64,000 bases of DNA from an uncultured virus (IMG/VR IMGVR_UViG_3300045999_010308). Taxonomy: Duplodnaviria > Heunggongvirae > Uroviricota > Caudoviricetes. Below the pieces are notes generated by a model. It was not told the origin of the DNA, did no database searches, and worked only from the letters and a program-made list of their open reading frames with translations. The DNA lies in IMG/VR virus record IMGVR_UViG_3300045999_010308, positions 1 to 64,000 of that record; one strand, written 5' to 3'. Within the stretch, counting starts at the first letter, position 1, and each line of letters begins with the position of its first letter. The translations under genes and the position numbers were made by a program. Shown here in pieces: positions 2,962 through 55,500 of this stretch.

Positions 2962-3018
2962 AATGATTATTTATTTTTTCGAGTATTGATAAAATAACAG
3001 AAAAAATGATATTCATGG

Positions 3019-33142: not shown

Positions 33143-33193
33143 AGTTCAATCTACAGAATTTTCTATATTGTAGCATAAAAGTTGAGATTGGTT

Positions 33194-33226
33194 GCAAGTT
33201 TTTTGTAAGTTTTTTGTAAGTTTTTT
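33194..33226. repeat. three phased 11-bp repeats G(C/T)AAGTTTTTT in the divergent control region
   Basis: 33194, 33205, 33216; reverse-complement pair at 37611-37632. Confidence 0.7.
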
Positions 33227-37544: not shown

Positions 37545-37677
37545 CTCTCCTCTAAAATTTGATTAATACAATCTTATAGTAAATTGCTAGAATTGTCAAG
37601 CATTTTTTAAAAAAAACTTGCAAAAAACTTACAAAAAGATAATAGTACAAAAAAACTAAGTTATTATCGTTAATAAA

Positions 37678-37966: not shown

Positions 37967-40228
37967 CTAGCTGATCGTTGCTAGTGATTCTTTAAAAGGC
38001 ACTGGATAACTTGAATTTTGAAAAACCCGTACTGTGTAAGCCGATTGGACTGACCCCCAGTCGGCTATCTGTTGCGATTCTGTGTAAACGACGCTTCGGG
38101 TCGATGGTACTGACCATTCTCGTTTTACTGTGTCCCCGTCGTAAATTCTGACTACATAGCTGTCCAATTCTCCTGCTGCGTAAGCAATGTCGATATAGTC
38201 GATCCAACGACCATTTAACCGCGTCCGTCGATACCAAGTAATAATTAAATCGTTGTTATCTTTTTCGCCTCTTACAGCACAAGGGAAAGGCTTCAATCCT
38301 TCTAGGGTGATTGTGTGAGCAATCTCGTCTTCTATATCAGTTTCAAGTAGTCCATTAGGAACTACTTTTAATAAATATTCTCGATTAATATCAGAAAGAT
38401 TTAAGGGGAATCGAACTAAATAATTAGTTAGTAACACAAATTTTTCCCCTATTATATGCCTAGAAATAACTGGTTCAGTTCCTTTGACTCCACGAATTGT
38501 ATATGAAATATCAAAGGTTAAGGGATTGTTGGACACAATAGCAGCATTTTTAAAAGCTATAATTTCTCCGGTAGAGAACCAACCTAATTGTTTGCCCGAT
38601 AGAAATGTTTCAAGAGTGACTGGCTCTAATTCCCCTGAATTCATGCTTACTCGTATCCAGTTTGAATCGTCAATAAAACTAGGAGAAGCGTTGTTAAAAT
38701 TTGGGGAGAAGCTTAATACAGTACCAGTTGTGCTGTTGATGATATTGCCAGCAGCAAAATCATAACTTAAGCCGTTGTCATCGGAATAAAATAAGGCTCC
38801 TCTGTTAAAACTAGAGTTACCTTCAATTGCCACATAAATTCCTATGTCTGTATCTCGGGTATCAACTATTGGGCATTCAATAGGAATAGCGTTAGCGCGT
38901 CCGTAGGGACGAGGGCTGTTATTGTCTGGTGGAAATTCGTTATCTATAGGAATATCTGGTGAATATCCTACTCCTTGAAATCGAGTAGCTTCAATTTCAA
39001 TTAAATAATTTACACCTCTTACTTTCTTTGTAATTTGCATCAATTCCTGATGATAATTGTTATTATCATCGGTAAAAATTACATCCCCAACTTTCAAATT
39101 TTCCCATGCTGGCAATAAAAACATTTTTGAAAAAGTTTTTGATTGCGTTTTCCCTAAAAAAAGAATTTTTGAAGCAATATTCATGAAAAGCGTATCTACA
39201 TCTATTAACTTAGTTTGAAAACTAAGCTCGTTTGTGTGAGTATCTGATGGGTCTTTAGCTACTACGGTAATAGTTTCATGATTTTTTAAAACATTTAGTC
39301 CAGATACTGTAACGGCACTAGGAGTTTCTCTAAAATGAGTCAGTTTTTTCTCATTAATGTCAATAGGATTTTCTCCAAATTTTTTAGATCCAAAAGAGCT
39401 TTTAGGGATAAAAATAGGATCAGATAATTGTTCTTGTCTTTTAAAAATGATTTTATCTTTTGGCTCCCTTGCTACAATAAAAAAAGCTCTCATAAGTTCT
39501 TCTAACTGATCAGCAAAAGATGTCCCATCAAACAATAAATCAAATCCTTGAATTCGGTAATCATCAGGAATGTCAGTCACATCAATTTGATCGTCTTTTC
39601 TACTAGCTAATTTACAAATAGTTTTCAAAATATCTTTTATTTTTGGATTGTCTTCACTTTCTCCAATCACCTCAATATCAATAGCAGGAAATCCAGTGCC
39701 GTCATAGTTAGCAATCGGATAATTATCGAAAATTAAAAAAGACATTCCAGTAAAAGCAGGTACTGGATTAGATTCTTTTGATTGAATTACTGACGATGGT
39801 GTAGTTTGATTGCCAGTATAAATAGTTGTATGCTCAATAAACTTTAGGCTTTTTTCGTCATTAGTTTCGGAATTGTAAACGAGGACGCTGTTCATCCAAA
39901 CCCGCCTAACAGAGCCAATTTTTCTAGCAATTGGATAAGCAGCTGTCAGAAAATAAGTGTAAACTTCGGTAGTTTGCCCACCACCACCACCTTTTCCGCC
40001 TTGTCTTTCGGTCGTGACGACTTCCTTAAGAGGAATCCCCCACATCATAGTTAGCCCTTCTTTCCTCACTTTTCCAAAAGGATAGGATAGGCTTTTACCG
40101 TATTCAGCATCGGGAAAACCAGTATCCTCAATTTTTCCTTTTTGTTGGGTAGGAGGTTTAGGAGCAAATAGAGATAATAATAGGTTAGCTCCGATTCCTA
40201 TCGCTACGGGAATGAGAAAATTAGCCAC
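37967..40228 (-). CDS. GTA-like tail tip/host-specificity protein (phage-tail_3/J-like)
   Basis: YG..L...FG, RRVW.N, PAF.G, RG.KGT, ITW.RRTR..G.W. Confidence 0.8.
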   Translation of the reverse strand: MANFLIPVAIGIGANLLLSLFAPKPPTQQKGKIEDTGFPDAEYGKSLSYPFGKVRKEGLTMMWGIPLKEVVTTERQGGKGGGGGQTTEVYTYFLTAAYPIARKIGSVRRVWMNSVLVYNSETNDEKSLKFIEHTTIYTGNQTTPSSVIQSKESNPVPAFTGMSFLIFDNYPIANYDGTGFPAIDIEVIGESEDNPKIKDILKTICKLASRKDDQIDVTDIPDDYRIQGFDLLFDGTSFADQLEELMRAFFIVAREPKDKIIFKRQEQLSDPIFIPKSSFGSKKFGENPIDINEKKLTHFRETPSAVTVSGLNVLKNHETITVVAKDPSDTHTNELSFQTKLIDVDTLFMNIASKILFLGKTQSKTFSKMFLLPAWENLKVGDVIFTDDNNNYHQELMQITKKVRGVNYLIEIEATRFQGVGYSPDIPIDNEFPPDNNSPRPYGRANAIPIECPIVDTRDTDIGIYVAIEGNSSFNRGALFYSDDNGLSYDFAAGNIINSTTGTVLSFSPNFNNASPSFIDDSNWIRVSMNSGELEPVTLETFLSGKQLGWFSTGEIIAFKNAAIVSNNPLTFDISYTIRGVKGTEPVISRHIIGEKFVLLTNYLVRFPLNLSDINREYLLKVVPNGLLETDIEDEIAHTITLEGLKPFPCAVRGEKDNNDLIITWYRRTRLNGRWIDYIDIAYAAGELDSYVVRIYDGDTVKREWSVPSTRSVVYTESQQIADWGSVQSAYTVRVFQNSSYPVPFKESLATIS

Positions 40229-40266
40229 GGGTTAAGTAGGTAGAGTGAGTATTTTCTCTATTCTAA

Positions 40267-40339
40267 TAGGTTGAGTAGGAATCGAACCTACCCAAGACGA
40301 ATTATGAGTTCGTTGCCTCAACCGCTCGGCCATCAACCC
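40267..40339 (-). tRNA. tRNA-Met/Ile2 (CAT)
   Basis: GGGTTGA/TCAACCT acceptor, ACGAA-CTCATAA-TTCGT anticodon arm, GTAGG-TTCGATT-CCTAC T-arm. Confidence 0.88.
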
Positions 40340-40344
40340 TTGAC

Positions 40345-40755
40345 CTATTTAGGAAAAAATAAAGTAGGAGAGATATTAAAAAAATCGGCTAATTTTTGAA
40401 CGTGAATATCTGTTATCTCTCGCTGTCTATCAAAAATATCATCTAGGATTGATTGATCCTCAAAAATAGATAATAAGTCTTGCTTTTGCAAGTTCTTTAG
40501 TTCTAACAAAAATTTCAATAGCTCAACTCCATAAATATCAGGTATTGGCTCTTGATTTTCCTCATACTCATAAATCAAAGTTCCTAAAACACTTAAATAC
40601 TCCCTTTCTTCTATTGTCAATTGAATTTTATCTAATATGATTTTATCTAAAAAAGAACTGATAACTCTTTCCGTGTTTTCTAGCTCTTCCTTGTCGTGAA
40701 TAGGACGAGGAGGGTATTGTTTTAATAATTCTAAGTATTTATTTGTATCAAACAT
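40345..40755 (-). CDS. HigA-like antitoxin/HTH regulator (no cognate toxin adjacent)
   Basis: YPPRPI...E.E...L..LI..YE...LKFLL....LQKQDL...R.IT..H..KLA.FF. Confidence 0.8.
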   Translation of the reverse strand: MFDTNKYLELLKQYPPRPIHDKEELENTERVISSFLDKIILDKIQLTIEEREYLSVLGTLIYEYEENQEPIPDIYGVELLKFLLELKNLQKQDLLSIFEDQSILDDIFDRQREITDIHVQKLADFFNISPTLFFPK

Positions 40756-40783
40756 AGTGTGACTTTAATCGCTGTAACTTTTT

Positions 40784-40812
40784 ATTATAGGTCAAGTCTT
40801 TGATTTTGTCAA
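40784..40812 (-). promoter_or_regulatory. consensus sigma70 promoter
   Basis: perfect TTGACA-17-TATAAT. Confidence 0.75.
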
Positions 40813-40828
40813 TATGTTTGATTTTAAG

Positions 40829-40911
40829 TGGGTTGGGCTGGATTTGCACCAGCGTGGAATTAAATCTACAGATTTACAGTCTGTCACCTTCGGCTACTCG
40901 GTCACTAACCC
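40829..40911 (-). tRNA. tRNA-Tyr (GTA)
   Basis: GGGTTAG/CCAACCC acceptor, ACAGA-CTGTAAA-TCTGT anticodon arm, long variable region, GCTGG-TGCAAAT-CCAGC T-arm. Confidence 0.85.
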
Positions 40912-40941
40912 TTGTTTAAATTTATCTTACCACAATTAAAG

Positions 40942-41190
40942 TTATTTGTCTATAGTTTTGATAAAAAAATAAATTAGATTTACTTTTTCCGATGTCAGTG
41001 TTTTGATTTTCATTAAGATTTCTATTAATTTATCCTTAAGTTCTTTTTTAGTGGGTTCTGTGTCAGTTGGTTTGTAAATGAAAGTTTTAGCACTCCCATC
41101 TTGTTCTATTTTAATCAAAGTGTATTTTTCCATTGTTTTGTTCTTCAATAAGAAATCCTGATATATCAAAATGATATTCACTGTCACCAT
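40942..41190 (-). CDS. hypothetical protein
   Basis: ORF downstream of array 1; real start may be MEKYTL. Confidence 0.45.
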   Translation of the reverse strand: MVTVNIILIYQDFLLKNKTMEKYTLIKIEQDGSAKTFIYKPTDTEPTKKELKDKLIEILMKIKTLTSEKVNLIYFFIKTIDK

Positions 41191-41203
41191 TTTGAGAAAC
41201 TAC

Positions 41204-42264
41204 CCTGCAATCTACTTAACAAGTCAAGCCGATTGTTACAAAAACCAGTAAATGCGATGGTGAAGGTAGCTTTTTCCTTGCAATCTACTTAACAAGTCAA
41301 GCCGATTGTTACCCTTAGTGGCGAAGGTTTCCCCTGAGATGAAGCGTCACTTGCAATCTACTTAACAAGTCAAGCCGATTGTTACGAAAAGCGAGGGGAA
41401 ACCGCGGCCACAATCTTAAGAGACTTGCAATCTACTTAACAAGTCAAGCCGATTGTTACTGTGGGGAGGGTTCCCCAGATTGTCGGTATAGTACCCTTGC
41501 AATCTACTTAACAAGTCAAGCCGATTGTTACGGAAAAGGAAAGATTCACTTGACAGATTCCAAGAGAAACTTGCAATCTACTTAACAAGTCAAGCCGATT
41601 GTTACCCCGATCGACCGCGAGTCTCTCTCGACAAAGGGGCTTGCAATCTACTTAACAAGTCAAGCCGATTGTTACCTGATTTTGATAACGTTGATTGGCA
41701 CTGGATAGGTCTTCTTGCAATCTACTTAACAAGTCAAGCCGATTGTTACTAGATGAAATTTTGGCCGCAATTGCTATAAGTAACCCACTTGCAATCTACT
41801 TAACAAGTCAAGCCGATTGTTACTTCGCGGTTTATCAGGCTTAAAACACCCCCATTGTGCTTGCAATCTACTTGACAAGTCAAGCCGATTGTTACTAACT
41901 GATTAAGATCATCGGAGTAGTACACTTCTGTCCTACTTGCAATCTACTTAACAAGTCAAGCCGATTGTTACCAATTGCCTCGATAATTTGATCCTTAGTT
42001 GCCCCTTCATCCTTGCAATCTACTTAACAAGTCAAGCCGATTGTTACCAGTTACCGGCTAGAGTGCCGGGAGTGTGGACGGTTCCAAACTTGCAATCTAC
42101 TTAACAAGTCAAGCCGATTGTTACAGGTTCATTTTGGCAAAATAAGCCAAAATGACGCGCTTGCAATCTACTTAACAAGTCAAGCCGATTGTTACTGGGA
42201 ATACAATTTTGATCGCTCAAGTGCCGGTCTTGCAATCTACTTAACAAGTCAAGCCGATTGTTAC
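41204..42264 (-). CRISPR. CRISPR array 1: 15 repeats (36 bp, GTAACAATCGGCTTGACTTGTTAAGTAGATTGCAAG), 14 spacers of 33-41 bp
   Basis: repeat starts on + at 41204, 41277, 41350, 41424, 41496, 41570, 41640, 41714, 41788, 41860, 41936, 42012, 42089, 42160, 42229; degenerate repeat at 41204 marks the trailer; ATTGCAAG 3' end supports minus orientation. Confidence 0.98.
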
Positions 42265-43946
42265 CCAGTCTCCCAGAGTGTAAGCTGCGTATAGTCTGCG
42301 TTGACTGTTTGCGCGGGTTGCGAGTGGATCGACCTTTTCCTTGTTTTTTTCTTAGGTGTCACTGGCTCGGAGGTCAAAACCAGTAAGGTTTCGAGGGTTT
42401 CTTCCCCAAGTAACAATCGGCTGGACTTGTCAAGTAATTCCTCCTGCGCTGATTCCTTATCGAAATCCTTCAGAGGCTTAACTTCCCCGGTGCAAGCCGG
42501 GTAGCTTCTTACGAAGTCTGCTTTCCCTAAGATGTTGATTGCGGCGGCCACATCTCTGGGTAAAGTACATCCACACTCTAAACATTTATGGGTGCGGGTT
42601 GATAAACTTTTTTTAACACGATTGCCACAGCGAGGACAATCCTGACTGGTGTAAGCTGGTTGAACTTTGATAAACTCTCGGTTGGGAGTTTTCATTTTCG
42701 TTTCAAGAAAACCAGTTAATTGTCCTAAACTAGCATCAGCAAAGGATTTATTTAATCCCCCTTTGGCTTTCGCGTTATTGCGTTCGTAGCCTTTACCGTC
42801 TTCTCTTTTTTTCGGTTTAGGTCGTCGCATTAAATTCTTTAAGTTGAGGTCTTCTACGGCTACAGCGCCATGATTTCTAGCAATATCGGTACTTAAGGCA
42901 TGATTAAATCCTTTGCGTTGTCTTGCTATTTTTTCGTGAGTTTTGGCAACTTTAGCACGAGTTTTAGCGAGATTTTTGCCGTCTTTATTTTCCCCTGCTT
43001 TATACTGTCTAGCGGTTTTTCTTTGCAGTTTTGCTAGTCTTTTTTGCTGTTTTCTATAGTATTTGGGCGGGTCAATTTGTTGGCCGTCGCTGGTACTAAT
43101 TATATATTCTAGTCCTACGTCAATACCGATTGCTTTATCGGAATCAGGTAGATCATCTACTTCAAATTCACCAAATAGACTTAGATAATATCCCGATGGG
43201 TATTTGATAATTGATACGGTAGAGGCTTTTCTGTCACCCCACCGAATATCTAAGGTATTGTTGATAATTTTTAAATCGCCTAATGTTTTGCCACAGCTAC
43301 CTATAGATATTTTATCCCCTTTTCTAACAGCGCAATCGCTGATCTCAGAATAAAGAGATTTAATTTTATCTTCTTTTCTTTTAAATCTAGGAAGTTTTCT
43401 GTCTAAATTCTTTTTATCGAGTTTGGTGTAAGCTTTCCAAGAATCAGCAAGCTTTTTTAAAACCCCTTTGACAAAAGCCATAGGGATGTCCTTGCATAGC
43501 TCTGGACATTTTTCTTTTGTAATACAGCCACATAACCCAAAATAATTATCAGATTTTAACCGCCGTTGAATAGGGATATGGACAGGATAAGAGTGACCTG
43601 CTTTTTGTCTTTTTTCTCTAGCTATCTGTATTTTAACTTTTTGCTTGCCAGTTAAATATTTGGGGGTGTAAAGGGGATTAGGAAGGGATTTACCTTTTTC
43701 GTTTTTCAGGGAGTCAATAAATTGAGGTTTTTTAGCTAAACGACGTTTAACCCGTTTAACTGGTTTTCCTGTTATTTTCTCAATCTCGTCGTAATACTTA
43801 TTAAGCTGATATTCCATCAGTAGCTCTAGCCCAAAATTCCAGACAGCTTTAAGCTCGTCCATCCAGCGATCAATATAGGCTCGCTGAGTAGCATTAAGGT
43901 TAAGCTTTATGTCCGCAATAGTTTTCTTGACTAGCATGGCTCTCAT
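42261..43946 (-). CDS. TnpB-derived compact type V CRISPR effector 1 (Cas12f/V-U-like), RuvC residues present
   Basis: N-terminal HTH_OrfB-like; RuvC-I GIDVG, RuvC-II VEDL, CPRC/CLEC Zn finger, RuvC-III RDVAAAINI; directly abuts array 1. Confidence 0.88.
   Translation of the reverse strand: MRAMLVKKTIADIKLNLNATQRAYIDRWMDELKAVWNFGLELLMEYQLNKYYDEIEKITGKPVKRVKRRLAKKPQFIDSLKNEKGKSLPNPLYTPKYLTGKQKVKIQIAREKRQKAGHSYPVHIPIQRRLKSDNYFGLCGCITKEKCPELCKDIPMAFVKGVLKKLADSWKAYTKLDKKNLDRKLPRFKRKEDKIKSLYSEISDCAVRKGDKISIGSCGKTLGDLKIINNTLDIRWGDRKASTVSIIKYPSGYYLSLFGEFEVDDLPDSDKAIGIDVGLEYIISTSDGQQIDPPKYYRKQQKRLAKLQRKTARQYKAGENKDGKNLAKTRAKVAKTHEKIARQRKGFNHALSTDIARNHGAVAVEDLNLKNLMRRPKPKKREDGKGYERNNAKAKGGLNKSFADASLGQLTGFLETKMKTPNREFIKVQPAYTSQDCPRCGNRVKKSLSTRTHKCLECGCTLPRDVAAAINILGKADFVRSYPACTGEVKPLKDFDKESAQEELLDKSSRLLLGEETLETLLVLTSEPVTPKKKTRKRSIHSQPAQTVNADYTQLTLWETG
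42410..42436 (-). ncRNA. anti-repeat (tracrRNA candidate) inside effector 1 CDS
   Basis: + strand GTAACAATCGGCTGGACTTGTCAAGTA is 25/27 identical to the 5' part of the crRNA repeat, i.e. inverted relative to the array. Confidence 0.8.
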
Positions 43947-44067
43947 GGATCGACCTTCCTTTATTCTTATTTAAATCTACCACAACCCTACTAGAAATGT
44001 CAAGTAAAAAGTCTAAAGATTTTTTGGGATACCAGTTCCCACATCAGAACCTGTAGCCCAACCCTTA
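43937..44067. repeat. 131-bp perfect direct repeat, copy 1 (promoter + RBS + MRA start)
   Basis: identical to 46832-46962; contains TTGACA-18-TAGATT and AAGGAAGG RBS. Confidence 0.95.
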
Positions 44068-44146
44068 GTTAGGCTAACCATGTTCCCAAGAGAAATCCTA
44101 GTAATAAAGTTGGTATTCCAATAAGATAAATTTCGTGATTTATTAT

Positions 44147-44434
44147 TTATTCTTTATAATTATTAATAGTTTCCCAGAAATAAATCTCTGCTAGTAATTT
44201 ATTTCTTTTAAGTATTAGTTTTTGCCAAAAACGAAAACTTTCAAAAAAGTTATCCCATCCACGAGGGACATCAACAAAAATACTATCTAAAATGATAAGT
44301 AGATACCTCTCGACAAAATTGCGTATTGTTAAGATTAAAGAACGTGGTTTTATTTCCATTTCTTTTAGTTCCGCTTTGGTTAATTTTTTCCTTAAAAATT
44401 GACTAATCTTTTTATCTAGTTGTGTTTGATTCAT
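44147..44434 (-). CDS. hypothetical protein
   Basis: ORF between array 2 and effector 1 promoter. Confidence 0.5.
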   Translation of the reverse strand: MNQTQLDKKISQFLRKKLTKAELKEMEIKPRSLILTIRNFVERYLLIILDSIFVDVPRGWDNFFESFRFWQKLILKRNKLLAEIYFWETINNYKE

Positions 44435-44458
44435 TGTTTTTTTCGGGTTTAATATTTA

Positions 44459-44854
44459 GTTTAATCTTAATAAGGCTTAAGCTTAATTGTTTCACTCAAA
44501 ATCACCCATAGGATGATATTAAGATGGTACGTTTCAATCCCTAATAAGGATTAAGGTTAATTGCTTTAACATATTAATTTGCAAACAATAGCTTCAGATG
44601 AAGTTTCAATCTCTAATAAGGCTTAAGGTTAATTGCTTCATCGCCTAGACTTGAAATAATTCTCAATGATTACATCGTTTCAATCCCTAATAAAGCTTAA
44701 GCTTAATTGCTTCTGTTAAAGGGGAAAAATTGTCATCATACCGTGAGTTTCAACCCCTAATAAGGATTAAGCTTAATTGCTTCGCTAATTGCGACCGGGT
44801 TAATTGGGACTACATTGGTTTCAACCCCTAATAAGGCTTAAGCTTAATTGCTTC
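44459..44854 (-). CRISPR. CRISPR array 2: 6 repeats (37 bp, consensus GAAGCAATTAAGCTTAAGCCTTATTAGGG(A/G)TTGAAAC), 5 spacers of 33-37 bp
   Basis: repeat starts on + at 44459 (degenerate), 44531, 44603, 44677, 44747, 44818; TTGAAAC 3' end on minus strand. Confidence 0.95.
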
Positions 44855-45007
44855 CCATCTTCTTTTAGCCCTTGATGTAAAAGGGTTTCGGGTAAGGATT
44901 GCGCCCCATTCGCTAAAATTTAGTTTTCAAGGTTCTGCTCATTCCAAAAAATCAGGCTAGTAAATCCCAGATCGTAAGTTGGTCGGGGTTTTCGGGGATT
45001 GCGCCCC
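44855..45007 (-). promoter_or_regulatory. leader of CRISPR array 2 (extends into effector 2 CDS)
   Basis: leader-like GAAACCCTTT...AAGGG; GGATTGCGCCCC repeated at 44896 and 44996. Confidence 0.55.
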
Positions 45008-46841
45008 GTGATTTTTTAGAACTTCGCTTAGATGCCTTATTGGGTAAGGCTTTCGGGTTATTTATGCCGTGGCTATCCTCGCACGGCTGAGGTGGGGCGG
45101 AAAGAAAAATAAGGGATTGCGAGTCATTCTCGGACTGAGTAGGTATGCGATTCCCTTCCTGCTTCATCTGCTTACTGATCGAGTGTTCGGCATTCTCTAT
45201 CGGCGCGTCCCCGATAGACTCTTGATTTGCATCAAGATCAGGCGTGAATTCCCTCGCTAAACCGAGGTATTTTCCAATCAAAGAGACAGGAAACTTGATT
45301 AAAGAGCCAATCGCTCTTAAAAACTCATCTCGTAAGCCACGAATCAGAATATTTGCGGCGGCATTCTGATCGGCGTGGGCTTCGTAACCACAGCTAGTGC
45401 ATTTAAACTTTGATTGACTAACGCGGTTAGCTTTATTAATATTACCACAATTGAAGCAAGTTTGTGAAGTATGTTTAGGATTAACTCGGATCACTTTTCT
45501 GCCACGTTCTTTGGCTTTATTCTCGATGAACGTGCGAAGTTGACCGATAGCATTATCAAGCAATACTTTATTTAATCCAGACTTTCTTTTTTTGCCATTC
45601 TGTTTATAGCCATTGCCGTCTTCCTTTTCTTTAGGTTTTGCGGCGGCTGTCATGTTTTTTAGTTTTAAATCTTCTAAAATAACTGATTGATATTCGCTGG
45701 TTATTTTATGGGCTAATTGGGCATTTCTCCCTTTTCTTTGACGGGCTATTTTCTCATGAACACGGGCAAGTTTAGCGTAAGTTTTACGCTGATTATTAGA
45801 GTTATCTTTTTGTCTAGAAGCTTGACGTTGCAATCGGTTAAGTCGCTTTTTCTGAATTTTTGCGTAGCGTTTAGCTTCTGATTGTCTCCCTAAGTCATCG
45901 GTAAATATTGCTACAGCACCCATATCTAACCCGACACACTTATCAGATTCTTTGTAGATCGTGTCGTCAGTTTCGATTTCGATAGTTAGCTGTAAATAAT
46001 ATCCCGTCGCTTTACGAGTAATTTTAGCCATTCGGGGAGCTTTCCCTTGCAATCGATCAAGTCCCCGTACTTTCAGTAATCCTATCTTTGAAGAAACAAT
46101 AACTCCATTAGATTTAATCTTTATAGTTTCAGGTTGACCGTTAACAAGAGTCTCTACCTTATCCCGTCTTCCTTTAAACTTAGGAACCCCACGAATACCT
46201 TTTTTAGCGGCATCGTAAGCGGGTTCAATCACACTTTTAAAAAAGCCTTTTTTAAACTCTGTTTCAATTTCACCGATAAATTTTGCTGTATCTTCTCGGA
46301 AATAAAAAGCAAGTTTCTGTCTATTAAGATAGTTAACAGCATCCTTATCAATATTTTCAGCATTCATAAAACGACGGATAGGAATAGCATCTAAGGGAGT
46401 GTACTCTTTTCCGTTACTTGTCTTTTTAAAATAGGCGATTTTACAGCAAGGATTACCGATTAAAAGTTCTTTCTCTTCATCTTTAAGGGTTTCAAACTCT
46501 TTTTCGTCGTAATGCCCAAAATAACTTAACTCCCATATTTCAGGGCTAAACTCATCAAATTTATGTTTTGTGCGATAATATCTTTGTTTTGATTCTTCCT
46601 TAAGTGCGATCGAAAGATTCCAGAGTAACTTACACGCCACTAAAGAACGATCAATCTCTGTGATTTGTTCTTTAGTAGGATGTATTTTAAATTCTAAGAC
46701 TTTCCTAGGAGGCTTTTCTTCCTTTGTCTTAGGAGTCTTTTTGACAATACTAAACCTTATATGCCCGTCTTTAGAACTAGGCGTTTTTTGAATTTGATAC
46801 TCATCTACTTTACGCTTAACTTTACTTTTTTTGGCTCTCAT
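44952..46841 (-). CDS. TnpB-derived compact type V CRISPR effector 2 (C2c8/V-U2-like), RuvC residues present
   Basis: LEFKIHPT..Q...I...WN; RuvC-I GLDMG, RuvC-II LEDL, CFNC/CTSC, RuvC-III ADQNAAANI; array 2 lies 98 bp downstream. Confidence 0.85.
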   Translation of the reverse strand: MRAKKSKVKRKVDEYQIQKTPSSKDGHIRFSIVKKTPKTKEEKPPRKVLEFKIHPTKEQITEIDRSLVACKLLWNLSIALKEESKQRYYRTKHKFDEFSPEIWELSYFGHYDEKEFETLKDEEKELLIGNPCCKIAYFKKTSNGKEYTPLDAIPIRRFMNAENIDKDAVNYLNRQKLAFYFREDTAKFIGEIETEFKKGFFKSVIEPAYDAAKKGIRGVPKFKGRRDKVETLVNGQPETIKIKSNGVIVSSKIGLLKVRGLDRLQGKAPRMAKITRKATGYYLQLTIEIETDDTIYKESDKCVGLDMGAVAIFTDDLGRQSEAKRYAKIQKKRLNRLQRQASRQKDNSNNQRKTYAKLARVHEKIARQRKGRNAQLAHKITSEYQSVILEDLKLKNMTAAAKPKEKEDGNGYKQNGKKRKSGLNKVLLDNAIGQLRTFIENKAKERGRKVIRVNPKHTSQTCFNCGNINKANRVSQSKFKCTSCGYEAHADQNAAANILIRGLRDEFLRAIGSLIKFPVSLIGKYLGLAREFTPDLDANQESIGDAPIENAEHSISKQMKQEGNRIPTQSENDSQSLIFLSAPPQPCEDSHGINNPKALPNKASKRSSKKSRGAIPENPDQLTIWDLLA

Positions 46842-46962
46842 GGATCGACCTTCCTTTATTCTTATTTAAATCTACCACAACCCTACTAGAAATGTCAAGT
46901 AAAAAGTCTAAAGATTTTTTGGGATACCAGTTCCCACATCAGAACCTGTAGCCCAACCCTTA
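46832..46962. repeat. 131-bp perfect direct repeat, copy 2
   Basis: identical to 43937-44067; includes the last codons of ORF 46908..47276. Confidence 0.95.
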
Positions 46963-47276
46963 TAAAAGTTAAAGGCGGTAGTATCAATATAAAGGGGAAA
47001 ACCTATAGCTTCCCAACAGTATAATAATCTTGGCACATCAACAATCTGAGACTTATAATTTAATCCTGTTTCAGTGATGATAAATTTTTCAAAAATCTCT
47101 GGGGCAACTAAAACAGAACAATAGCTAGTATCGTTAAATTTACCAGATTTTTTGGCTAATTCAGAAGTAATTGCGATCAAAATCTCTTTTGTAAGTAATC
47201 TTTCTTGCGATATATTGCAACTATCTAAGTTAGTCCAAGCGGTAAATTTAACATAATTAGATCGGGAATTAAACAT
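46908..47276 (-). CDS. hypothetical protein upstream of effector 2
   Basis: 122-aa ORF; related promoter at 47321-47350. Confidence 0.55.
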   Translation of the reverse strand: MFNSRSNYVKFTAWTNLDSCNISQERLLTKEILIAITSELAKKSGKFNDTSYCSVLVAPEIFEKFIITETGLNYKSQIVDVPRLLYCWEAIGFPLYIDTTAFNFYKGWATGSDVGTGIPKNL

Positions 47277-47343
47277 AACTTATAGCAGAAAAAGGTGCTA
47301 AACTATATTTGACTAACTTAAATCTACCATAAACCTACTAGAA

Positions 47344-47496
47344 ATGTCAAATGAAAATAAGGATATAGATTATTATCCTCTCAATGCCCGTATCTCGATC
47401 CCCGAAGAGAAAAAGCTAAAAAACTACTGTAAAGCCCAAAAGCGGTCAATAACCGAGGTAGTCCGGGAATTGATTAGAAGTTTACCCGATGACTGA
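47344..47496 (+). CDS. 50-aa CopG/ribbon-helix-helix regulator, missed by ORF track
   Basis: MSNENKDIDYYPLNARISIPEEKKLKNYCKAQKRSITEVVRELIRSLPDD; followed by terminator. Confidence 0.75.
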   Translation: MSNENKDIDYYPLNARISIPEEKKLKNYCKAQKRSITEVVRELIRSLPDD

Positions 47497-47528
47497 TACT
47501 CAAGAGTGTTGTCGGAATAGCCAACACA

Positions 47529-47558
47529 AAAAGTGCCAGTTCATAGACTGGCACTTTT
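47529..47558. terminator. bidirectional intrinsic terminator
   Basis: AAAAGTGCCAGT-loop-ACTGGCACTTTT between convergent genes. Confidence 0.75.
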
Positions 47559-47562
47559 AACT

Positions 47563-48384
47563 TTATTCCCCAATTAATAGTTGACGGTTTCTAGCCTTAG
47601 AAAAAAGCTGCTTAACTTCCTTGAGGTTTTCGGTGGGGACATAGGATGCTTGATTAACTCGCAACCCCTGACACACTAAATGAGAGTGTCCATTCTTCTC
47701 TAACCAACGCTCTAACTCTCTTCCAGACTTGAATCCTAGTTCTTTCCCTAACTCAGCAGTAGAACGACCCTCAAAACTCACGTTTCGTCCGTTTTTACAA
47801 ATAATTGTCTCAGTAATTTTTTCAACCTTCTCGATCACAATATCTGGACGGCCATCTAACAAGGCTAAAACCTCAGCACCATGTATTAATCGAATTGCGT
47901 CACGCCGATCCATGTAGTAGGTTTTGGCTTTTGTCAGTTCTAACTCAAGTTCTAATTCTCGAATACGTCCACTTTGAGCGGGGATTACTTCTTTGATAAG
48001 TTGCTTTGCTTGACTAAATGCCTTGACTAAGTTGCGCTTACAAGCAATGACCTGCGAAGTATTTCGAGACAGTGTCATCAAAAAAGTTGCTTGCTCTTCA
48101 TTCAGGTAGCAGTAACGCTCAGGACGACCGCCGCTAGAGCCTTCTAGGGGTTTCGACATTTGAAATGCGACAACTCCAAACTCTTGAATCTCGTCAATGT
48201 ATTTTTCTATGGTTTGACGCAAGGCGCGGTGTTCAATCCCCAACTCATCAGCAATCAAACGAGAATCAACGACAAGACAATCATTCTGTGATACTATTTC
48301 AATAGCCATATTGGCCTCTTGTTCAGGTAATGTGGTTAGTCCCCCGGTACTAACGGGGGCATCGCTACAATTGTACCATTTCAA
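47563..48384 (-). CDS. Rha-family phage regulatory/antirepressor protein
   Basis: VVDSRLIA..LG..H....GGRP..Y..LNE.QATFLMT.SRN...V...K..LV.AF; true start probably MAIEIV. Confidence 0.85.
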   Translation of the reverse strand: MKWYNCSDAPVSTGGLTTLPEQEANMAIEIVSQNDCLVVDSRLIADELGIEHRALRQTIEKYIDEIQEFGVVAFQMSKPLEGSSGGRPERYCYLNEEQATFLMTLSRNTSQVIACKRNLVKAFSQAKQLIKEVIPAQSGRIRELELELELTKAKTYYMDRRDAIRLIHGAEVLALLDGRPDIVIEKVEKITETIICKNGRNVSFEGRSTAELGKELGFKSGRELERWLEKNGHSHLVCQGLRVNQASYVPTENLKEVKQLFSKARNRQLLIGE

Positions 48385-49093: not shown

Positions 49094-49537
49094 CTATGAT
49101 TTTACCACTCCCAAAACAGGTACTCGATAAATTAGTACAGGCGGGTATTCATGGATATAGGTCTTAGTCACGCCATTTATTGAATCAGCATGGATGTACT
49201 CACCATCTCCCAGATAAATCCCCACGTGACCATTTACTCCTGACTTACGAAACATCAAAATATCTCCTTTAAACAAATCACCTTCAACTCTATCTAGTAA
49301 GCGATCAAGGAATTTAACTAAGAAGTTATTCCGGGGAATCCGTTCGTAGTTTTCAATAATGAAATCATGAGGCAAGAATCCGACTTCAATCCCTACGCCA
49401 GCGATAAATCCTACACAATCGGTTCCAATTCCTTTAAGCGATTGACCATGAAACCAAGGAGTACCGAGCCATTCAAGAGATTCAGCAACGATTTGATTAC
49501 CCAAAGAATCGTTTTTTAGTTCGTTCATTTTGTGCAT
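49094..49537 (-). CDS. NlpC/P60 tail-associated peptidase (GTA-type)
   Basis: WLGTPW.H.....G.GTDC.GF; GD.L.FR...H.GI......IHA. Confidence 0.9.
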   Translation of the reverse strand: MHKMNELKNDSLGNQIVAESLEWLGTPWFHGQSLKGIGTDCVGFIAGVGIEVGFLPHDFIIENYERIPRNNFLVKFLDRLLDRVEGDLFKGDILMFRKSGVNGHVGIYLGDGEYIHADSINGVTKTYIHEYPPVLIYRVPVLGVVKS

Positions 49538-52500
49538 TTTCCCGTTCTTTCAATTGATTTAAACTATAACCCATATCATTCCGTGATTCTACAGTCACAT
49601 TATTGGTGTTATTAATTACCAAAGACTGATTAGAGCTATTAGTATTTGAAGTTGTGGAGTAATTAGGCTTACCCCCGACAAATCCTCCATTAGCATAGTT
49701 CTTAATAGGAGCGTTGTTTCTGTACTCTAGATATGCTTCTGTTTCTTTAGGGTTGAGAACTAATTCGTCTTCATTGGCTACGATTAATCGAGGTTTTCGG
49801 CCTCCTGACATTGATCGTTCACGCTGGAAAGCTGAAATGATATTTTTCTCTATCGGAACATTGGCATCCCCAACTTTCCCGCCATCACTAAATAAGCTGA
49901 ATCCTGTACCTAGAGAAAAGGCAGAAGCTGGGACAGAAGCAAAGCTAGAGGCTCCTATACTACCAAGTGATCCAATGGAACCGAGTCCTCCACTAAAAAT
50001 CCCTGTTATTCCACTAAATAAGCTATTAAATAAGCCACCTCCGCCACCGCCCCCAAAAATAGAGGAAAAGATGTTACCTACTGGTTTGAAGATACTGTTT
50101 AGGGCGTTAGTAAAGAAATTGCCTACTGGCCCGATGATTGCATTAAATACTGATTCAAATGCCTGAGTAATCGGCTTTATAAATCCATCGATAGCAGAAG
50201 TTAGGACATCGATAGCAGGCTTAGTAATACCCTCGACAAATTTTGTCATGATATTTAAGCCAAGACTACTAAAAGCTGATCCTATTCCTTTTCCTTCTCT
50301 AATATCAGAGAAAAAGCTTTCAGCTGCGCCACGATTTGGGGAAGCGTCTAACTCCGCTCGTTCTAATCTTAATTCTGCAAGTTTTTCCCATTCCGAGCGA
50401 ATATTAGCCACATATTCAGCGTATTGTGGTAAGTTTTTGTAAGGTTCTAAATAATCCTCTAATTCTTCTTTTTCTTTTTGTAGGCTAATACGTTCGGCAA
50501 GGATAGCAGAATCATCAAATAAAGTCGGTCGGGATTGATTCTCTAACTTCATTCTTTGGACAGTTAAATCATTTAACCGATCACGAATACTCCTGACTGT
50601 ATCTCTGGTTTTTCTAAATGATGCTTCTAAGGTAGCTACTCCCTGATTCTTGCCTAATCGTTCAATTGCTTGATCAAGAATTGTTACCTGTTCTTTAGCT
50701 GATTCAGCGTTTTTAGCTAAAACCTCGATACTATCTGTCATCTCTTTGACAAATTCAGGAGGAAGAGCTATACCTTTTTCTTGAAATTCTCCTAAGATTT
50801 CTTTTATTGCGTCGCTGTATTTTTTTTGAGCGTCGGCATTTAAAAGTAAAGTCCGTCGCTGGTCTTGTAGTGATTCAATCTGAGAGCGGTATTGTCGAGA
50901 GACTTCTGTGGCACTCTTATTAATTTCTTCTTGTACTGTCAGATACCCTTTAGAGTTGATAGTCAAATCAGCGACATTCTCGGAAGCATCTCTTAAAGTA
51001 CGTTCTAATCCACGGGCATCTTCCTCTTGCTGCCGTCTAAATTTCATTGATCTGTCAAGAGCATTGTTTAGATTTTGTTGCTCTTCTAGTCGTCTTGAAA
51101 ACTCCTCAGCGTTTTGGTTAGCTATTTCAGCTTTGCGAATTTGATCAGCGGCCGCATCAAGATTACCCGTAGGGAGATTAGGAACGGGAAGTAAATTAGG
51201 ACTCTGGAAGTTAATCGGATTGTCTTTAAGAACCGGTGGTAAATCGGCATCCCAGAAATTATCTTGATTTTGATTAGGTAGAGTCGGTAATTGGGCTATA
51301 GGTGGAGGACTACTATATTCTGGACCACCTTGATTTCTTCTGAATTGCCGAAGAAATTCCCGGTAATACTGCATTACTATCTTGACATCTTCAACAGTAC
51401 CCTTGGCTAATTGACCATTTCTAACATTTCCTGGTCCTGCTTTGTAGGCTGATATAGCTAACTCAATATTGCCGTTAAATCGCTCAAGCATTCTAGCAAG
51501 ATAAGTTGCGCCGCCAATTAGATTTTCAGTAGGATTAAGGGGATTTACTCCTAACTCTTCGGCAGTGCCAGGCATTAATTGACTAAGTCCCATTGCACCC
51601 GCTGAACTCTTATGGATTTGAGTAGGATGATCGGGATCCATGTGATGGAAACTTGATTCTTTTTTAATTAAAGCGGCAAAAAGAAGCGGATCAATGCCAA
51701 CTTGTCTAGCCGCACCTTCAATCAAAGAAGCAAAGGGAACTTTAGGAAATCCTGAACTTACAGTATTTTTTTGTTGATTTGCAATCGCATCAAACACTCG
51801 TAAAGTGTCGCGATTTGATAAAGCTGATCGCCCTCGAAAATTTGCAGTTTCTGAGAGTCCTAAGTGGAGATGAGGTGCTCCTCCAGCCATGCCTACGCCG
51901 CCTAAAACTACTCCTTCTTTTACTTGTTGCCCTACCTGAAAATTTTGTGCAAGATCAGTTAAATGAGTATAGTAAGCGTGTGTCAAAGTTTTCCCATCTA
52001 CGACAATTGGAATATCAAATTGGATTTTGATCGAATGTTGATTTTGATATCCAGGTAAACTTGGATTAGAATCTTCTTTATTAATTGTTCCGCCTGGTCC
52101 AGCACTAACAATCCTTCCTGATCGAATATTTAAAACTGGCGTTCCTACGGGCGCAAAAACATCAACTCCGCGATGTTGATCGCCCTGATCGCCTGTGATT
52201 TGCCCGTTTGGAACAGGATAAACAAAGATATTGCGCGGGATATTTTTAAATTCCGAGCCGTTAAAAGTTTGTCGAAAATTATTGCGGCCTTTTAACGACT
52301 GTGGTGGCGGTAAAAACCCTCCCCCATTCCACACAGGAGCAGGGGCGAAATTACCAGGTGCTGGTAGTATCAAACCTTCCTTAGCTTTTCTAATTGCCTC
52401 AGCAGTTTCCTCTATACTTTTTACTAAGTCTTCTCCAGAAGTCTTAATATTTGGGGGAATAGCCACTAACTCAGAATTGATTAATTTAATTGGTTCTGGA

Positions 52501-55500
52501 AGTGTATTAAGATTTGTGACAATATCCTTGATTGATTGGGGAATAAAGCCTAATTCTTTATTAGTTTGTCGGATTAAATCAGCTAAAGTGCGATTAAGGT
52601 TTTCCTGAGTCCGTTTAATATCCTCAATCGTTCTTAGTCTATTTCTTTCAGCGTCTTGCTGTTGCTCTTGTAGATTACGGATATTTCTTAGGGTAGAGAT
52701 ATAGGAAGTTTCTATCTCCTCGGTTCGGGATTGGAAGGTGCGTCCGCGACTGGCAAGGTCAGCTTGTCCCTGTACAAATTCCAGGAAAATGTCCCCTAAT
52801 TCTTTACCAGCGTCGCTTGTACCGGGTATTAATAACCGATTTTTAACTTGCTGTACCCTGATTCTATCAGTTGTATCTAGTAGCTGATTTTGGGCATTTA
52901 AGAGGTTCTTATCGAGTTCCCTAACTAAATCACTGTAACTTTCAGATAGGGAACGATTCTCTTTAAATGCTGACAGTTGAGCGTCTTCAATCTGTCTCCT
53001 GTAATCGTCAATCTGACGATTAAAGTCGATTATCTGACGGTCAAGGTTGCGGTAATAGTCTTGTAGTGATGTTTGTTGCTGTAATAGGTTAGCGCGGGCT
53101 TGTTCTAGGGCTAATCGGGTATTATCAACCTCTTGCTGAATCACATTAGGGTCGTCTGACGCACTTTCTAATCGACGATAAGCCTCTCCTAATAATCTCT
53201 CTTGGTTGCGAACTTCTGATAAGGCATCCCGATAGGAAGCGGCTGGCCCCCCAAAGGGTAATTGCCTTAAAGTAGCAATTCTCTCGTTGACATTGGCACC
53301 GACTATTGATGCTTGTCTGGCATTTCTTGCGCGCTCTCGTCTAGCGTTAGCAATTTCTAGTTCTGTATCAACAATTGATTTATCAATAGTTAAAGTTTGT
53401 CGTCTAATAGATGCTTGCTGTTTAGCTGTTTCTAATACCTGTTTTAATTCAAAAGGCGATTGATCTCCCAACTGTTGTAACCGATCACCTATAGCTTCTG
53501 GTGACACACTTCCCTGCTGTAATGCCGTTCTAAAATCTATTCCATTTAATTCAGGCATTAACTCAGTTATTCGCTGATTAATCTGATCTGTTAGGGTGTT
53601 TTGTAATTCTTTTTCTTTAGTTGCCAGTAATCCATTAAGCGAATTAAACTGATCCTTGACAATAGATAGGCTCTGTTCTCTAACGGTCAAGTCTATTTCA
53701 AACGGCTTCAGGTTCCCAGATAAAACTTGTCGTTTAATATCTGTTTCAGACAAAATAGTTCGACCACTAGAGACAAATTCAATATTAGATAAAGCTCTTG
53801 CTACTTTATTTATTTGTTCTGTTAATTGTTGATAGTTGACTAAATTCTCTTTGACTGCTTCGTTATATTTTTCTTGCGATTCTTTTAATTTTCTAAGTTG
53901 AACTTCAGTAATTTCTAGCTGGATACTAGCATTATCTTTTTGGGAATTAGAAGACTCTGGATCATCTAAAACTTTTTTAATTGCTGTAATTCTTTCTTCT
54001 GTAGATGCTATCTCATTAACAATAAGCCCAATTTGAGGAAAGTATTTTTCCGTTAAAGCTTGTATTTCTTGGTTTACTTTCGCAATTTCTTGACGAACAG
54101 ATGTAGCTTTTTTAATGTCAGCATCTCCACTAGCTATGATTTCATCTATCTTGAGGTCTTTCGCTTTTTGCCGCAATGTGTCAAGTTTACCTGTAAATTC
54201 GGTAATCTTTGTATCACTGAATGTATCGGTTGATAATCTTAAAATTTGTGTCGTATCAATGAGTCCCCCCGCAGTAAATTCTAAGCTTTTATCTCTTTCT
54301 CTGTTGTTTTTAAATCGCTGAATTGCGGTTGCACTATCAGTTATAACAGTAGAAGCTTTAGGTGTAGGCAAAGGTTTCTCTAGTAATCTTCTCAATTCTT
54401 GTAACGATTCTTGAGTTGATTTAAGAGATCGTTTAGACTCTTCGGAGCCTGCGTTGATGTACTGATAAAGCTCTTTAAAAGCTTCCATTACACCATAAAT
54501 TAAAGCAGTCCATCCTAGTCCTTTAAGTAGTCCTACTCCAATCTGAGATATTGCCCCACGAGTAGATGCCGCTGTAACTCCCAGTGCTTTTAATCCTAAG
54601 TCTATAAGTCCGATATTTTTTAAAACCATAATAAAACCGCCAGCACTAACAACACCAATAGATGTCAATACAGTAGCTAACGACTGACCATTTTTCGTTA
54701 ATATTTCTAGTCCTTTTGTTATTAATGGTAATCCTAATTTAGAAGCGTTTAATAAAGATTCGCCTAATGAAATGCGAAGCAATTCTATCTGATTTTGAAC
54801 TCTGGCAACTTGAGCAAAAGCAGTATCATCAATAACACTAAGTCCACCAGCACTTTCTAAGTTAATCTGTGTAGCTAGTTTAGGTAGCAAATCTTCTGCT
54901 AAAATAGATCCTGATTCAACTAATTTAATAAATTCTTGAGAAGTCAATCCCATAGAACGAGCAGCAATCTGTAACGCGCCTGGCATTGCTTCACCTAACT
55001 GAGAGTTAAGTTCTTCCATTGAAACACGACCTTTACTAGCTATCTGAGTAATGGCTAGTAAAGCTCTGTCTTGCTGTTGAGAACTAGCACCTCTAGTAGC
55101 CAATCCTAATGTTATTCCTTCAAAAATTTTATCTTTTTGAAATTCTAATGGCGTATTTATTACAGAAGCACTAAACTGCTGATAATTTTTGGCAGAAGAT
55201 AAAAATGATATTCCTAATCGGTCAGCTTGTATCTTTAATTTAGCAAGAGAAGATTCAGCATTTCCAGTTGAGAAATTTAAGACTGTTTCAAGCCGCTCCA
55301 TGTTTAATGCTGCTTGAAAAGAATCAGTGGTAAATTGTCGAAAAAACACACCGGCTTGCTGAAGAATTTGAAAACCAGCAAAAGCTGATAACAGTGTTCT
55401 TGCTCCAAGCAAGACTCGTTTAATAGGTTCAGGCAAGTTATTTAACTGATTTTTAATTGCTTCAAATGCCTTACCTATTTTTTGTAATTGAGTAGGATTG

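Follow-up and report, generated by a model that had tools for sequence, protein, structure and literature searches.

Two diverged type V-U2 (C2c8) effector-plus-array cassettes in tandem in a virus of Microcystis, with small circular plasmids as their probable main targets

We will describe here a stretch of 64,000 nucleotides (nt) from an uncultured virus of the Caudoviricetes (IMG/VR IMGVR_UViG_3300045999_010308), which we call the window. It is part of a virus record which has 82,822 nt in full and is 91% complete by CheckV. The record encodes a terminase, a baseplate hub, a ribonucleotide reductase, methylases and a DUF3987 primase-helicase, as identified with Pfam. In the window there are two genes, casA and casB, each of them with its own CRISPR array. 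The best explanation, to which we give as a whole a probability of about 0.7, is that a siphophage-like virus of Microcystis carries two diverged type V-U2 (C2c8) effector-plus-array cassettes in tandem, directed against plasmid competitors and to a minor extent against rival phages. The data on which it rests are the anatomy of the locus, family membership, population structure, spacer matches, protospacer adjacent motif (PAM) statistics and presence in RNA libraries. The main features of the locus are the following:

42261–43946, minus strand: casA, open reading frame (ORF) of 561 amino acids (aa), C2c8 (type V-U2) effector, from a subclade other than that of casB
44952–46841, minus strand: casB, ORF of 629 aa, C2c8 (type V-U2) effector
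41204–42264, minus strand: array 1 (R1), with 14 spacers between 15 repeats of 36 nt, the repeat ending in ...GATTGCAAG
44457–44854, minus strand: array 2 (R2), with 5 spacers between 6 repeats of 37 nt, the repeat ending in ...GGTTGAAAC
44855–44951, minus strand: leader of 97 nt, which separates the first repeat of R2 from the casB stop codon and holds a decayed repeat-like stretch

Each array is found downstream of its own effector gene and on the same strand. A first-pass annotation, made from the sequence letters, had described two TnpB-like proteins of 561 and 629 aa with same-strand arrays, and three RuvC acidic residues plus a zinc finger in each protein; the ORFs, the repeat analysis and the alignments bear this out, and both genes are intact. 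The translation of casA shows the RuvC motifs GIDVG, VEDL and RDVAAA, that of casB shows GLDMG, LEDL and ADQNAAA, and both have two CxxC pairs. Residues D276, E365 and D465, together with C437, C440, C455 and C458 (casA numbering), are invariant in a family alignment of 20 members; the equivalents of the D-E-D triad and of the four zinc-finger cysteines are also invariant in a second alignment with 28 relatives. Both proteins match OrfB_IS605 and Cas12f1-like_TNB in Pfam. With the NCBIfam model V_cas_c2c8 (NF038192) casA scores 369.7 bits and casB 463 bits, both over the curated cut-off of 350, and these scores are reproduced on the full genome record. The IS200/IS605 TnpB model gives 171.1 bits for casA and 139.1 for casB, far under its cut-off of 425.

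The two proteins are 32% identical over 497 aa. In a tree of 112 rows the long C2c8-like proteins, 91 in number, are all found in one clade, with a Shimodaira–Hasegawa-like approximate likelihood ratio test (SH-aLRT) value of 100, apart from the short TnpBs; the tree is a quick IQ-TREE search without bootstraps, in which the six named TnpB outgroup rows are not monophyletic. casB groups with chromosomal Microcystis genes (SH-aLRT 100). casA is found on a long branch in a separate subclade of 19 rows (SH-aLRT 100), together with Xenococcaceae, Chroococcus and related sequences; its nearest relatives, from Xenococcus, Xenococcaceae and Chroococcus, are about 50% identical to it. Profile searches and phylogeny agree in placing both proteins within C2c8 and outside the ordinary TnpBs. 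The two had been thought to derive independently from IS605 TnpB: this is not supported, since both pass a single C2c8 model and belong to the same clade of 91 proteins. Judged by their sequences they are two branches of one family, which appear to have reached the phage separately. An array adjacent to the effector, with no adaptation module, is also the arrangement in the cyanobacterial loci L045, L046, L050, L051–L055 and L103.

No Cas1, Cas2, Cas4, Cas6 or Y1 transposase (tnpA) was found by Pfam in 83 of the 86 ORFs of the 82,822-nt record. The set consists of non-overlapping ORFs of at least 75 aa; the three outside the scan are a 3251-aa ORF at 49497–59252, an ORF artefact of array 1 and an ORF across position 64000. 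The absence of tnpA, cas1, cas2 and cas4 had been noted before and holds for the ORFs scanned over the whole record; the more general claim, of two different modules in the phage, each a Cas12-like effector plus array without adaptation genes, is supported as well.

The OrfB_IS605 match in Pfam, the matches to TnpB-family models in NCBIfam and the annotation of close homologues as 'IS605 OrfB family transposase' would also fit ordinary IS200/IS605 TnpB transposon genes, found beside arrays by chance. This is very improbable. The IS200_TnpB scores (171 and 139 bits) are to be compared with a cut-off of 425, the C2c8 clade is separate from the TnpBs and no TnpA is found in the 83 ORFs scanned. 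Besides, the genes occupy one fixed locus across about 50 phage contigs, with no multiple insertion sites. The gp49 gene of phage Mic1, to which we will return, offers a contrast: it is a true TnpB (424.5 bits) and has no array.

The AlphaFold model of casB has a mean predicted local distance difference test (pLDDT) value of 67: the core is confident, while residues 517–629 are predicted to be disordered. Its best match in the PDB with Foldseek is Cas12p (9jfs; E = 1.8e-22, 569 columns, 19% identity), and the next-closest folds are TnpB and Cas12f. A Q-L-x-L-W motif is present at the extreme C-terminus throughout the C2c8 family, with one column nearly invariant. It is found in residues 553–558 of casA (42261–42290) and 620–625 of casB (44952–44985), where a long tail with predicted disorder precedes it. 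Since the two genes differ at its synonymous positions, it seems to be a motif of the protein.

The two arrays differ in their state of conservation. Array 1 has spacers of 33–41 nt and 13 of its 15 repeats are identical, the other two having one change each; they are near-identical, as previously described. The first of them overlaps the stop codon of casA. Array 2 has spacers of 33–37 nt, and its repeats are 73–100% identical to the reference copy, the most decayed one being the farthest from casB. By eye, the repeat-like stretch in the leader between casB and R2 looks like the remnant of another repeat. The R1 and R2 repeats match in 24 of 39 aligned columns. They had been called unrelated; they are diverged, but not wholly unrelated. 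In the same way array 2 is indeed shorter and more decayed in this genome, but the suggestion that it is not current is misleading at the level of the lineage: in related phages R2-type arrays reach 26 repeats, and their cas-proximal end has fresh spacers.

The window and 17 casB loci contain 151 spacers, 94 of them unique. In these R2-lineage arrays the spacers at the trailer end are common to several phages, and the cas-proximal ones are unique. For example spacers 38-39-40 are shared by L006, L008 and L012, spacers 68-69-70 by L008 and L012, and spacers 16 and 18 by the window and L007. Such a pattern is that expected from acquisition at the leader end, with occasional deletions. The R1 arrays of casA loci contain 173 spacers (85 unique), with sharing, deletions and reshuffling. 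A comparison of array 1 with five related phage records gave only matches at chance level, of 14–22 nt.

casB is present at 91–100% identity in 17 viral loci, and 16 of them have only casB with an R2-type array (4–26 repeats). The remaining one, L003, has both cassettes and is identical to the window over 10 kb. casA is present at 95–100% identity in 37 viral loci, 33 of which have R1 arrays with 2–15 repeats; in just one of the 37 it is accompanied by casB, and this is the same contig as L003. A fragment (L160) has an identical R1 array of 15 repeats, but its contig is cut upstream. When it is compared with casB-only phages, the window holds a clean insert of 2.87 kb (41204–44067). At the upstream edge of this insert there is a duplicated segment of 131 nt, which contains the tail of a 122-aa ORF, a promoter, a ribosome binding site and the first three codons. 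The features of this region are:

43937–44067, minus strand: duplicated 131-nt segment, copy upstream of casA, 100% identical to 46832–46962
46832–46962, minus strand: duplicated 131-nt segment, original copy upstream of casB, 100% identical to 43937–44067
43974–44003, minus strand: promoter-like site TTGACA-N18-(TG)TAGATT upstream of casA
46869–46898, minus strand: second copy of the promoter-like site, upstream of casB
47321–47350, minus strand: promoter-like site again (third copy), here upstream of the 122-aa ORF
46908–47276, minus strand: 122-aa ORF with no function assigned, which precedes the cassette locus in both phage genotypes, with a conserved flank
44147–44434, minus strand: 95-aa ORF with no function assigned, between array 2 and the casA insert

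The promoter-like site has three exact or near-exact copies in the window, whereas none are expected by chance. In casA-only phages too, casA is preceded by this promoter. Since loci with either casB or casA dominate, and since the promoter segment of 131 nt is shared at the edge of the insert, we infer that the two cassettes are alternative occupants of one locus, and that the tandem is a rare recombinant formed through the shared promoter region. Five casA-only loci (L149, L150, L151, L152 and L164) have one R2-like repeat match each, possibly the remnant of a replaced casB cassette. Relatives also carry a counterpart of the 95-aa ORF downstream of their R2 arrays. Scans of this ORF and of the 122-aa ORF with Pfam and NCBIfam gave no match. 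Neither megablast of positions 40000–48000 nor blastn of array 1 gave any match in a phage collection in which the closest records may not be included.

We will now consider what the spacers match, taking as a match up to 5 mismatches over the full spacer in a local BLAST search. A search of 17 species-representative genomes of Microcystis with array 1 gave matches in three of them. Four plasmid-like Microcystis contigs are matched by 6 of the 14 R1 spacers of the window and by 25 of 80 R2-type spacers. When both sets are pooled, 31 of 94 unique spacers match these contigs, against 0 of 94 in the shuffled control. This is also the case for 31 of the 85 unique R1 spacers from casA loci. One spacer of array 2 in the window (sp15) matches contig L134 in 33 of 33 positions. 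Three of the four target contigs (8.8–9.2 kb) have terminal direct overlaps of 127–141 nt, the signature of circular molecules, and are therefore taken as circular. Among the products of the target contigs are a tyrosine integrase and a Mu-like helix-turn-helix protein, and with them a primase-helicase (DUF3987 or DUF3854) which has about 1000 aa. The primase-helicase is 75% identical to that of plasmid p1 (6,987 bp) of M. aeruginosa NIES-2549, and p1 itself is matched by both types of spacer, for example by sp66 in 34 of 35 positions. Protospacers are found all along the plasmid and on either strand. The arrays of the host chromosome, which we will describe below, seldom match these plasmids (3 of 132 spacers).

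The phage and the plasmids also have replication features in common. The 955-aa DUF3987 primase-helicase of the phage (29879–32746, minus strand) is 31% identical to the plasmid replication protein over 840 aa (E = 8e-90). Upstream of its gene there are iteron-like TTGTAAGTTTT repeats (33192–33224), with a second cluster at 37613–37634; the same repeats are found again in two plasmid-like contigs, L135 and L137. Because of the homologous primase-helicase and the shared iteron-like repeats, the plasmids are likely to compete with phage replication or to parasitize it. Competition with other phages or plasmids had been suggested as the purpose of the modules, and the spacer matches support it as the likely one, directed at plasmids and occasionally at other phages.

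Targeting between phages has been detected once in each direction. The first case is a protospacer within casA itself:

42432–42467, plus strand: protospacer in casA, matched in 35 of 36 positions by spacer sp72 of the casB-only phage L009, with 5' flank GTC

It lies right beside the anti-repeat of casA described below. Among the 94 unique spacers, sp72 is the only one that matches the phage lineage outside the arrays. In the other direction, the R1 spacer a59 of the casA-only phage L159 matches in 37 of 37 positions the genome of that very casB phage (G002). These two cases are suggestive of warfare between genotypes and do not amount to a pattern.

The flanks of the protospacers point to two PAMs. 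R2-type protospacers have GT at positions -3 and -2 in 17 of 25 cases, against a background of 4.4% (binomial p = 8e-18); their 5' flanks are GTC (8), GTT (6), GTA (2) and GTG (1). R1 protospacers have NTT in 15 of 31 cases and TTC in 3 more, with a TT background of 9.8%; among the matched R1 spacers of the window itself, 4 of 6 have a TT flank. The PAM would then be GTN for casB-type arrays and T-rich (NTT) for casA. The first agrees with the PAM given for the type I-D system (TiD) of M. aeruginosa, GTH, in the accessible text of its description (PMC7648086). As both repeats and PAMs differ, the cassettes fit the orthogonality that the first-pass annotation had proposed for them: the search of spacer targets has given Microcystis plasmids and two distinct PAMs.

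A number of protospacers are found in the region of the plasmid replication gene, which would suit systems that regulate genes or block replication by binding without cleavage, like Cas12m or TldR. A regulatory role was proposed for V-U2 by the authors who described it in cyanophage vB_AphaS-CL131, and small V-U effectors were formerly held to be too small to cleave, according to the accessible part of that paper (PMC6293099). We find binding without cleavage quite improbable here: the RuvC acidic triad and the zinc finger are invariant in the 20 and 28 relatives aligned, the coverage of both plasmid strands has no focus on promoters, and a clear PAM together with a rapid turnover of spacers suits interference.

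In the host chromosome we find close relatives of one cassette. A Microcystis gene on the chromosome has 91% identity to casB over 585 aa. In two Microcystis genomes (L052 and L053) the genes Uma2, cas6 and c2c8 follow one another and lead to a large array, whose repeats have 37 nt. Such arrays next to c2c8 in the host have from 16 to more than 60 repeats, and the R2 repeat is identical to theirs in 30 of 37 positions. Among 132 spacers of these host arrays 22 match the phage lineage, several of them perfectly, and the flank on the phage is GTN in 20 of the 22. These matches lead us to conclude that the host is Microcystis and that an active arms race exists between host and phage. The Microcystis cas6-c2c8-array loci resemble casB and R2 in effector, repeats and GTN PAM; unlike them, the phage copy has no cas6 and targets plasmids, whereas the host arrays target phage. 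A long casB-like c2c8 is found in only 3 of the 17 Microcystis genomes, and a gene similar to casA was found in none of them. In our best explanation casB has been exchanged recently with the host chromosome.

Some other chromosomal loci deserve a comment. In L052 and L053 the leader-proximal host spacers match the phage lineage with a GTN PAM, and c2c8 is found within a locus of class 1 type. In L051 (Microcystis sp.) the c2c8 match spans 1761–4050, the open frame is much shorter and there are two separate matches on the contig, which may reflect an interruption or a duplication of the host gene. L054 and L055 are assigned to a Crocinitomicaceae metagenome-assembled genome (one contig has 86,497 nt); they have a casB-like gene and R2-type arrays, and are probably phage contigs mis-binned into a genome of Bacteroidota.

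The host probably supplies the uptake of spacers for R2, because its repeats are host-like and its PAM is that of the host. This suggests that the type I-D adaptation proteins of the host load the R2 arrays of the phage. Another Microcystis strain is listed with Cas1d and Cas2d in the accessible part of the source, and a neighbourhood of Uma2/cas6 type has been described, in a source of which a part was accessible, for a type III-B cluster of Microcystis.

The casA cassette has a candidate guide RNA of its own. The regions with possible guide functions are:

42410–42440, minus strand: anti-repeat of R1 in the 3' coding region of casA, tracrRNA- or omegaRNA-like candidate (RNAduplex)
45017–45050, minus strand: anti-repeat candidate of R2, weak and degenerate, -23.2 kcal/mol against a local value of -10.1 ± 3.1
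45155–45284, minus strand: candidate small RNA of about 130 nt in the 3' coding region of casB, weak, a lead only

The casA anti-repeat is found about 145 nt upstream of repeat 1 and is complementary to nearly the entire R1 repeat. Its pairing energy is -43 kcal/mol, whereas 6920 local windows give a background value of -11.9 ± 3.5. It is kept in all 33 casA loci which cover 42410–42440; its three variants alter the encoded residue (D, S, N), but pairing with the invariant repeat, as G.U or A-U, is retained in each. In the predicted fold of a 265-nt stretch, smaller hairpins are enclosed by the pairing of the anti-repeat with repeat 1 (z = -5.0; none of 200 shuffles is as good). The predicted structure resembles a trans-activating CRISPR RNA (tracrRNA) or a natural omegaRNA-like single guide. 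In freshwater metatranscriptomes, 18 runs from 8 studies hold parts of the locus. RNA-library contigs from 4 runs in 4 studies extend from the first R1 repeat through the anti-repeat, some of them into other spacers; they indicate presence only, with no strand, ends or level and with possible carry-over of DNA, regions without coverage being uninformative, and the depth of contigs cannot rank parts of a gene. In casB, run X8 has very deep short contigs at 45066–45279, whose loose ends look adapter-like by eye. The fold of the small RNA candidate is unexceptional (z = -1.2), and its region encodes a part of casB predicted to be disordered. On the plus strand, the best duplex partner of R2 is 44861–44905, within the leader (-30.4 kcal/mol, RNAduplex).

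Putting these elements together, we propose the following mechanism. A copy of one phage promoter would drive each cassette. Each of them is predicted to produce CRISPR RNAs (crRNAs) which would guide its own RuvC nuclease to double-stranded DNA beside a 5' PAM. The main targets would be small circular Microcystis plasmids of about 7–9 kb, and the rival phage genotype a minor one. casA would bring its own guide scaffold, the anti-repeat at its 3' end pairing with the repeat as in a tracrRNA or an omegaRNA. For R2 the type I-D/III machinery of the host probably supplies the uptake of spacers and perhaps processing by Cas6 during infection. The tandem genome would have arisen when both cassettes were joined through the shared promoter segment of 131 nt.

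Several points weigh against this explanation. DNA targeting by C2c8 guided by crRNA is a prediction from sequence, with the protospacer matches and their PAMs as indirect support. Cleavage, the loading of crRNA and the identity of the adaptation machinery are predicted in the same way, and the harm done by plasmids is pure inference. Many spacer matches carry 3–5 mismatches. R1-type repeats are found in 0 of 17 Microcystis genomes with up to 3 mismatches, so that the explanation does not account for the addition of R1 spacers, and no Cas1 (Pfam PF01867, TIGR00287) is above the cut-off in the three Microcystis genomes with c2c8, which are drafts. The RNA-library contigs have the limits given above. 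For R2 there is no convincing anti-repeat: 45017–45050 is outside the top matches of a wider scan. Nor does the casA anti-repeat seem to be a general feature of C2c8. None was detected in the cellular relatives L050, L103 and L051–L055, nor as inverted repeats in L045–L047; since relatives both closer (L045, L046) and more distant (L050, L103) have none, it is not a trait of the family.

A last point of this kind is that the R2 repeat is of the host type processed by Cas6 and its PAM is the type I-D PAM, so that R2 crRNAs might serve class 1 effectors of the host instead. In its full form this alternative holds that the arrays, at least R2, are host-type class 1 arrays which load host I-D/III-B complexes, and that C2c8 is a selfish TnpB-like nuclease or a regulator. 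The similarity of R2 to the host repeat speaks for it, as does the position of the host c2c8 between cas6 and a large array, beside Uma2, in a neighbourhood similar to that described for type III-B. So do the coincidence of the R2 GTN with both the type I-D GTH and the host-array PAM, the absence of a strong R2 anti-repeat, and the case of cyanophage N-1, which has an array without cas genes according to the part of the CL131 paper available (PMC6293099). We nevertheless consider it unlikely. R1 repeats are absent from the 17 host genomes, so that no host effector is expected to load R1, yet casA and R1 behave alike, with the same targets and variable arrays. The linkage of gene and array is total: all 17 casB loci have R2, and the 33 casA loci which reach past the end of the gene all have R1. 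The catalytic residues are invariant, and a GTN PAM with 37-nt repeats ending in AAAC can be used by a mini Cas12, as described for Cas12p in the accessible text of a preprint (bioRxiv 10.1101/2025.01.20.633832). We therefore keep as the best explanation that each array serves its own C2c8 effector.

Some known systems may be compared with the two cassettes. One of them is vB_AphaS-CL131, a cyanophage described in 2018 (AEM 2018, PMC6293099) with a putative V-U2 locus: a TnpB-like gene, 10 spacers and 36-nt repeats. It is also a siphophage of a bloom-forming cyanobacterium, with a V-U2 effector beside an array and no other cas genes in the accessible description. Its effector is the best match from an isolate, with 38% identity to casA and 37% to casB. 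Its authors, who suggest a regulatory role, found neither a tracrRNA nor repeats similar to those of the host, and neither clear targets nor a PAM; the one spacer matched there corresponds to a DNA primase pseudogene (PMC6293099). Here, unlike the single cassette of CL131, there are two diverged ones, one of them derived from the host and with host-like repeats, and there are dozens of matched protospacers, two inferred PAMs and an anti-repeat. The novelty of a phage-borne V-U2 system, implied in the first-pass annotation, is thus lost to CL131. What is new is the dual organization with alternative cassettes, the recent exchange between host and phage, the replication-related plasmid targets, the two inferred PAMs and the anti-repeat within a gene. 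In the literature on C2c8/V-U2 and on Cas12/TnpB of Microcystis cyanophages we found no description of the present system; the accessible table of a 2024 review lists V-U2 without PAM or size.

Cas12p, the 'Cas12 hacker' of type V-P, is described in the available part of its preprint (bioRxiv 10.1101/2025.01.20.633832) as phage-encoded and as an early intermediate from TnpB to Cas12. Its PAM is GTN, tail genes lie nearby, the repeat has 37 nt and pairs through its 3' AAAC with a tracrRNA, and activation is by thioredoxin; PAM, repeat and tracrRNA make it a precedent for the present proposal. Like Cas12p, our effectors are phage-borne and have 500–700 aa, and in the PDB no structure matches the casB model better than Cas12p. 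In the casB cassette the inferred flank is GT (17 of 25) and the 37-nt repeat ends in AAAC; casA and R1 have a T-rich flank and a repeat ending in GCAAG. We have considered Cas12p as a member of the same family and rejected it: phmmer aligns only the RuvC region (casA 268–462, E = 1e-26; casB 327–497, E = 1e-19), and identity in the structural alignment with the casB model is 19%.

Mic1 gp49 is a gene for a nuclease of the TnpB superfamily in a Microcystis siphophage, expressed immediately after infection. In a Mic1 variant the burst falls from about 450 to about 2, and disruption of gp49 is the sole non-neutral change reported in the accessible part of that study (PMC11237433). As a homologue of our effectors it was rejected: it is an ordinary IS200/IS605 TnpB (424.5 bits), it scores 113 bits with the C2c8 model and no CRISPR-like array adjoins it. 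Mic1 is not close to the present phage. After gp49 there is an unannotated gap of about 3 kb (L175, 18856–21907; 53855–56906 in the Mic1 record) with nine families of direct repeats; their spacings of 51, 64 and 137 nt are not CRISPR-like.

Another phage with CRISPR is ICP1, a lytic phage whose own type I-F CRISPR-Cas is reported (Seed et al. 2013) to act against PLE, a satellite of Vibrio cholerae; the CL131 paper refers to it. It is reportedly a complete class 1 system which includes its own adaptation genes, and PLE is said to interact with phage replication. The present case is similar in that the spacers of the phage correspond to a small, host-resident element with an integrase. It differs in having single-effector cassettes in which no adaptation genes were found, and in targets which look like small autonomous plasmids.

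Two other features of the window may be mentioned. The 3251-aa ORF at 49497–59252 (minus strand) adjoins an NlpC/P60 gene, about 2.7 kb from casB, and is probably a tape-measure protein. A perfect tandem repeat of 132 nt, with 2.5 copies and 100% matches, is found at 24068–24402, inside an ORF (23753–24943) with a DUF2793 match.

The observations may be carried one step further, into a tentative scheme which we consider doubtful when all its parts are taken jointly. Plasmids similar to p1 would exploit phage replication; the two interchangeable and orthogonal cassettes would be counter-weapons; the phage genotypes would attack each other's cassette; and R1 would gain spacers without a cognate Cas1-Cas2. 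R1 arrays do keep gaining spacers, while the scan of the phage found no Cas1-Cas2 and none of the 17 Microcystis genomes has a matching repeat. If the scheme were true, R1 acquisition would be due either to a promiscuous foreign adaptation module of the host acting on an unrelated repeat, or to an uptake which needs no cognate Cas1-Cas2.

For the V-U2 family, this locus and its approximately 50 relatives provide a set of predictions: two natural PAMs, the orientation of the guide, a candidate for a tracrRNA encoded within the 3' end of the effector gene, a layout similar to that of the TnpB omegaRNA, and dozens of natural targets. The two nucleases are compact (561 and 629 aa) and apparently orthogonal, and they are candidates of practical interest for genome editing. 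For Microcystis, an organism of harmful blooms, the matches point to a three-way conflict: host arrays are directed against the phage, phage arrays against plasmids and, occasionally, against the rival phage genotype.

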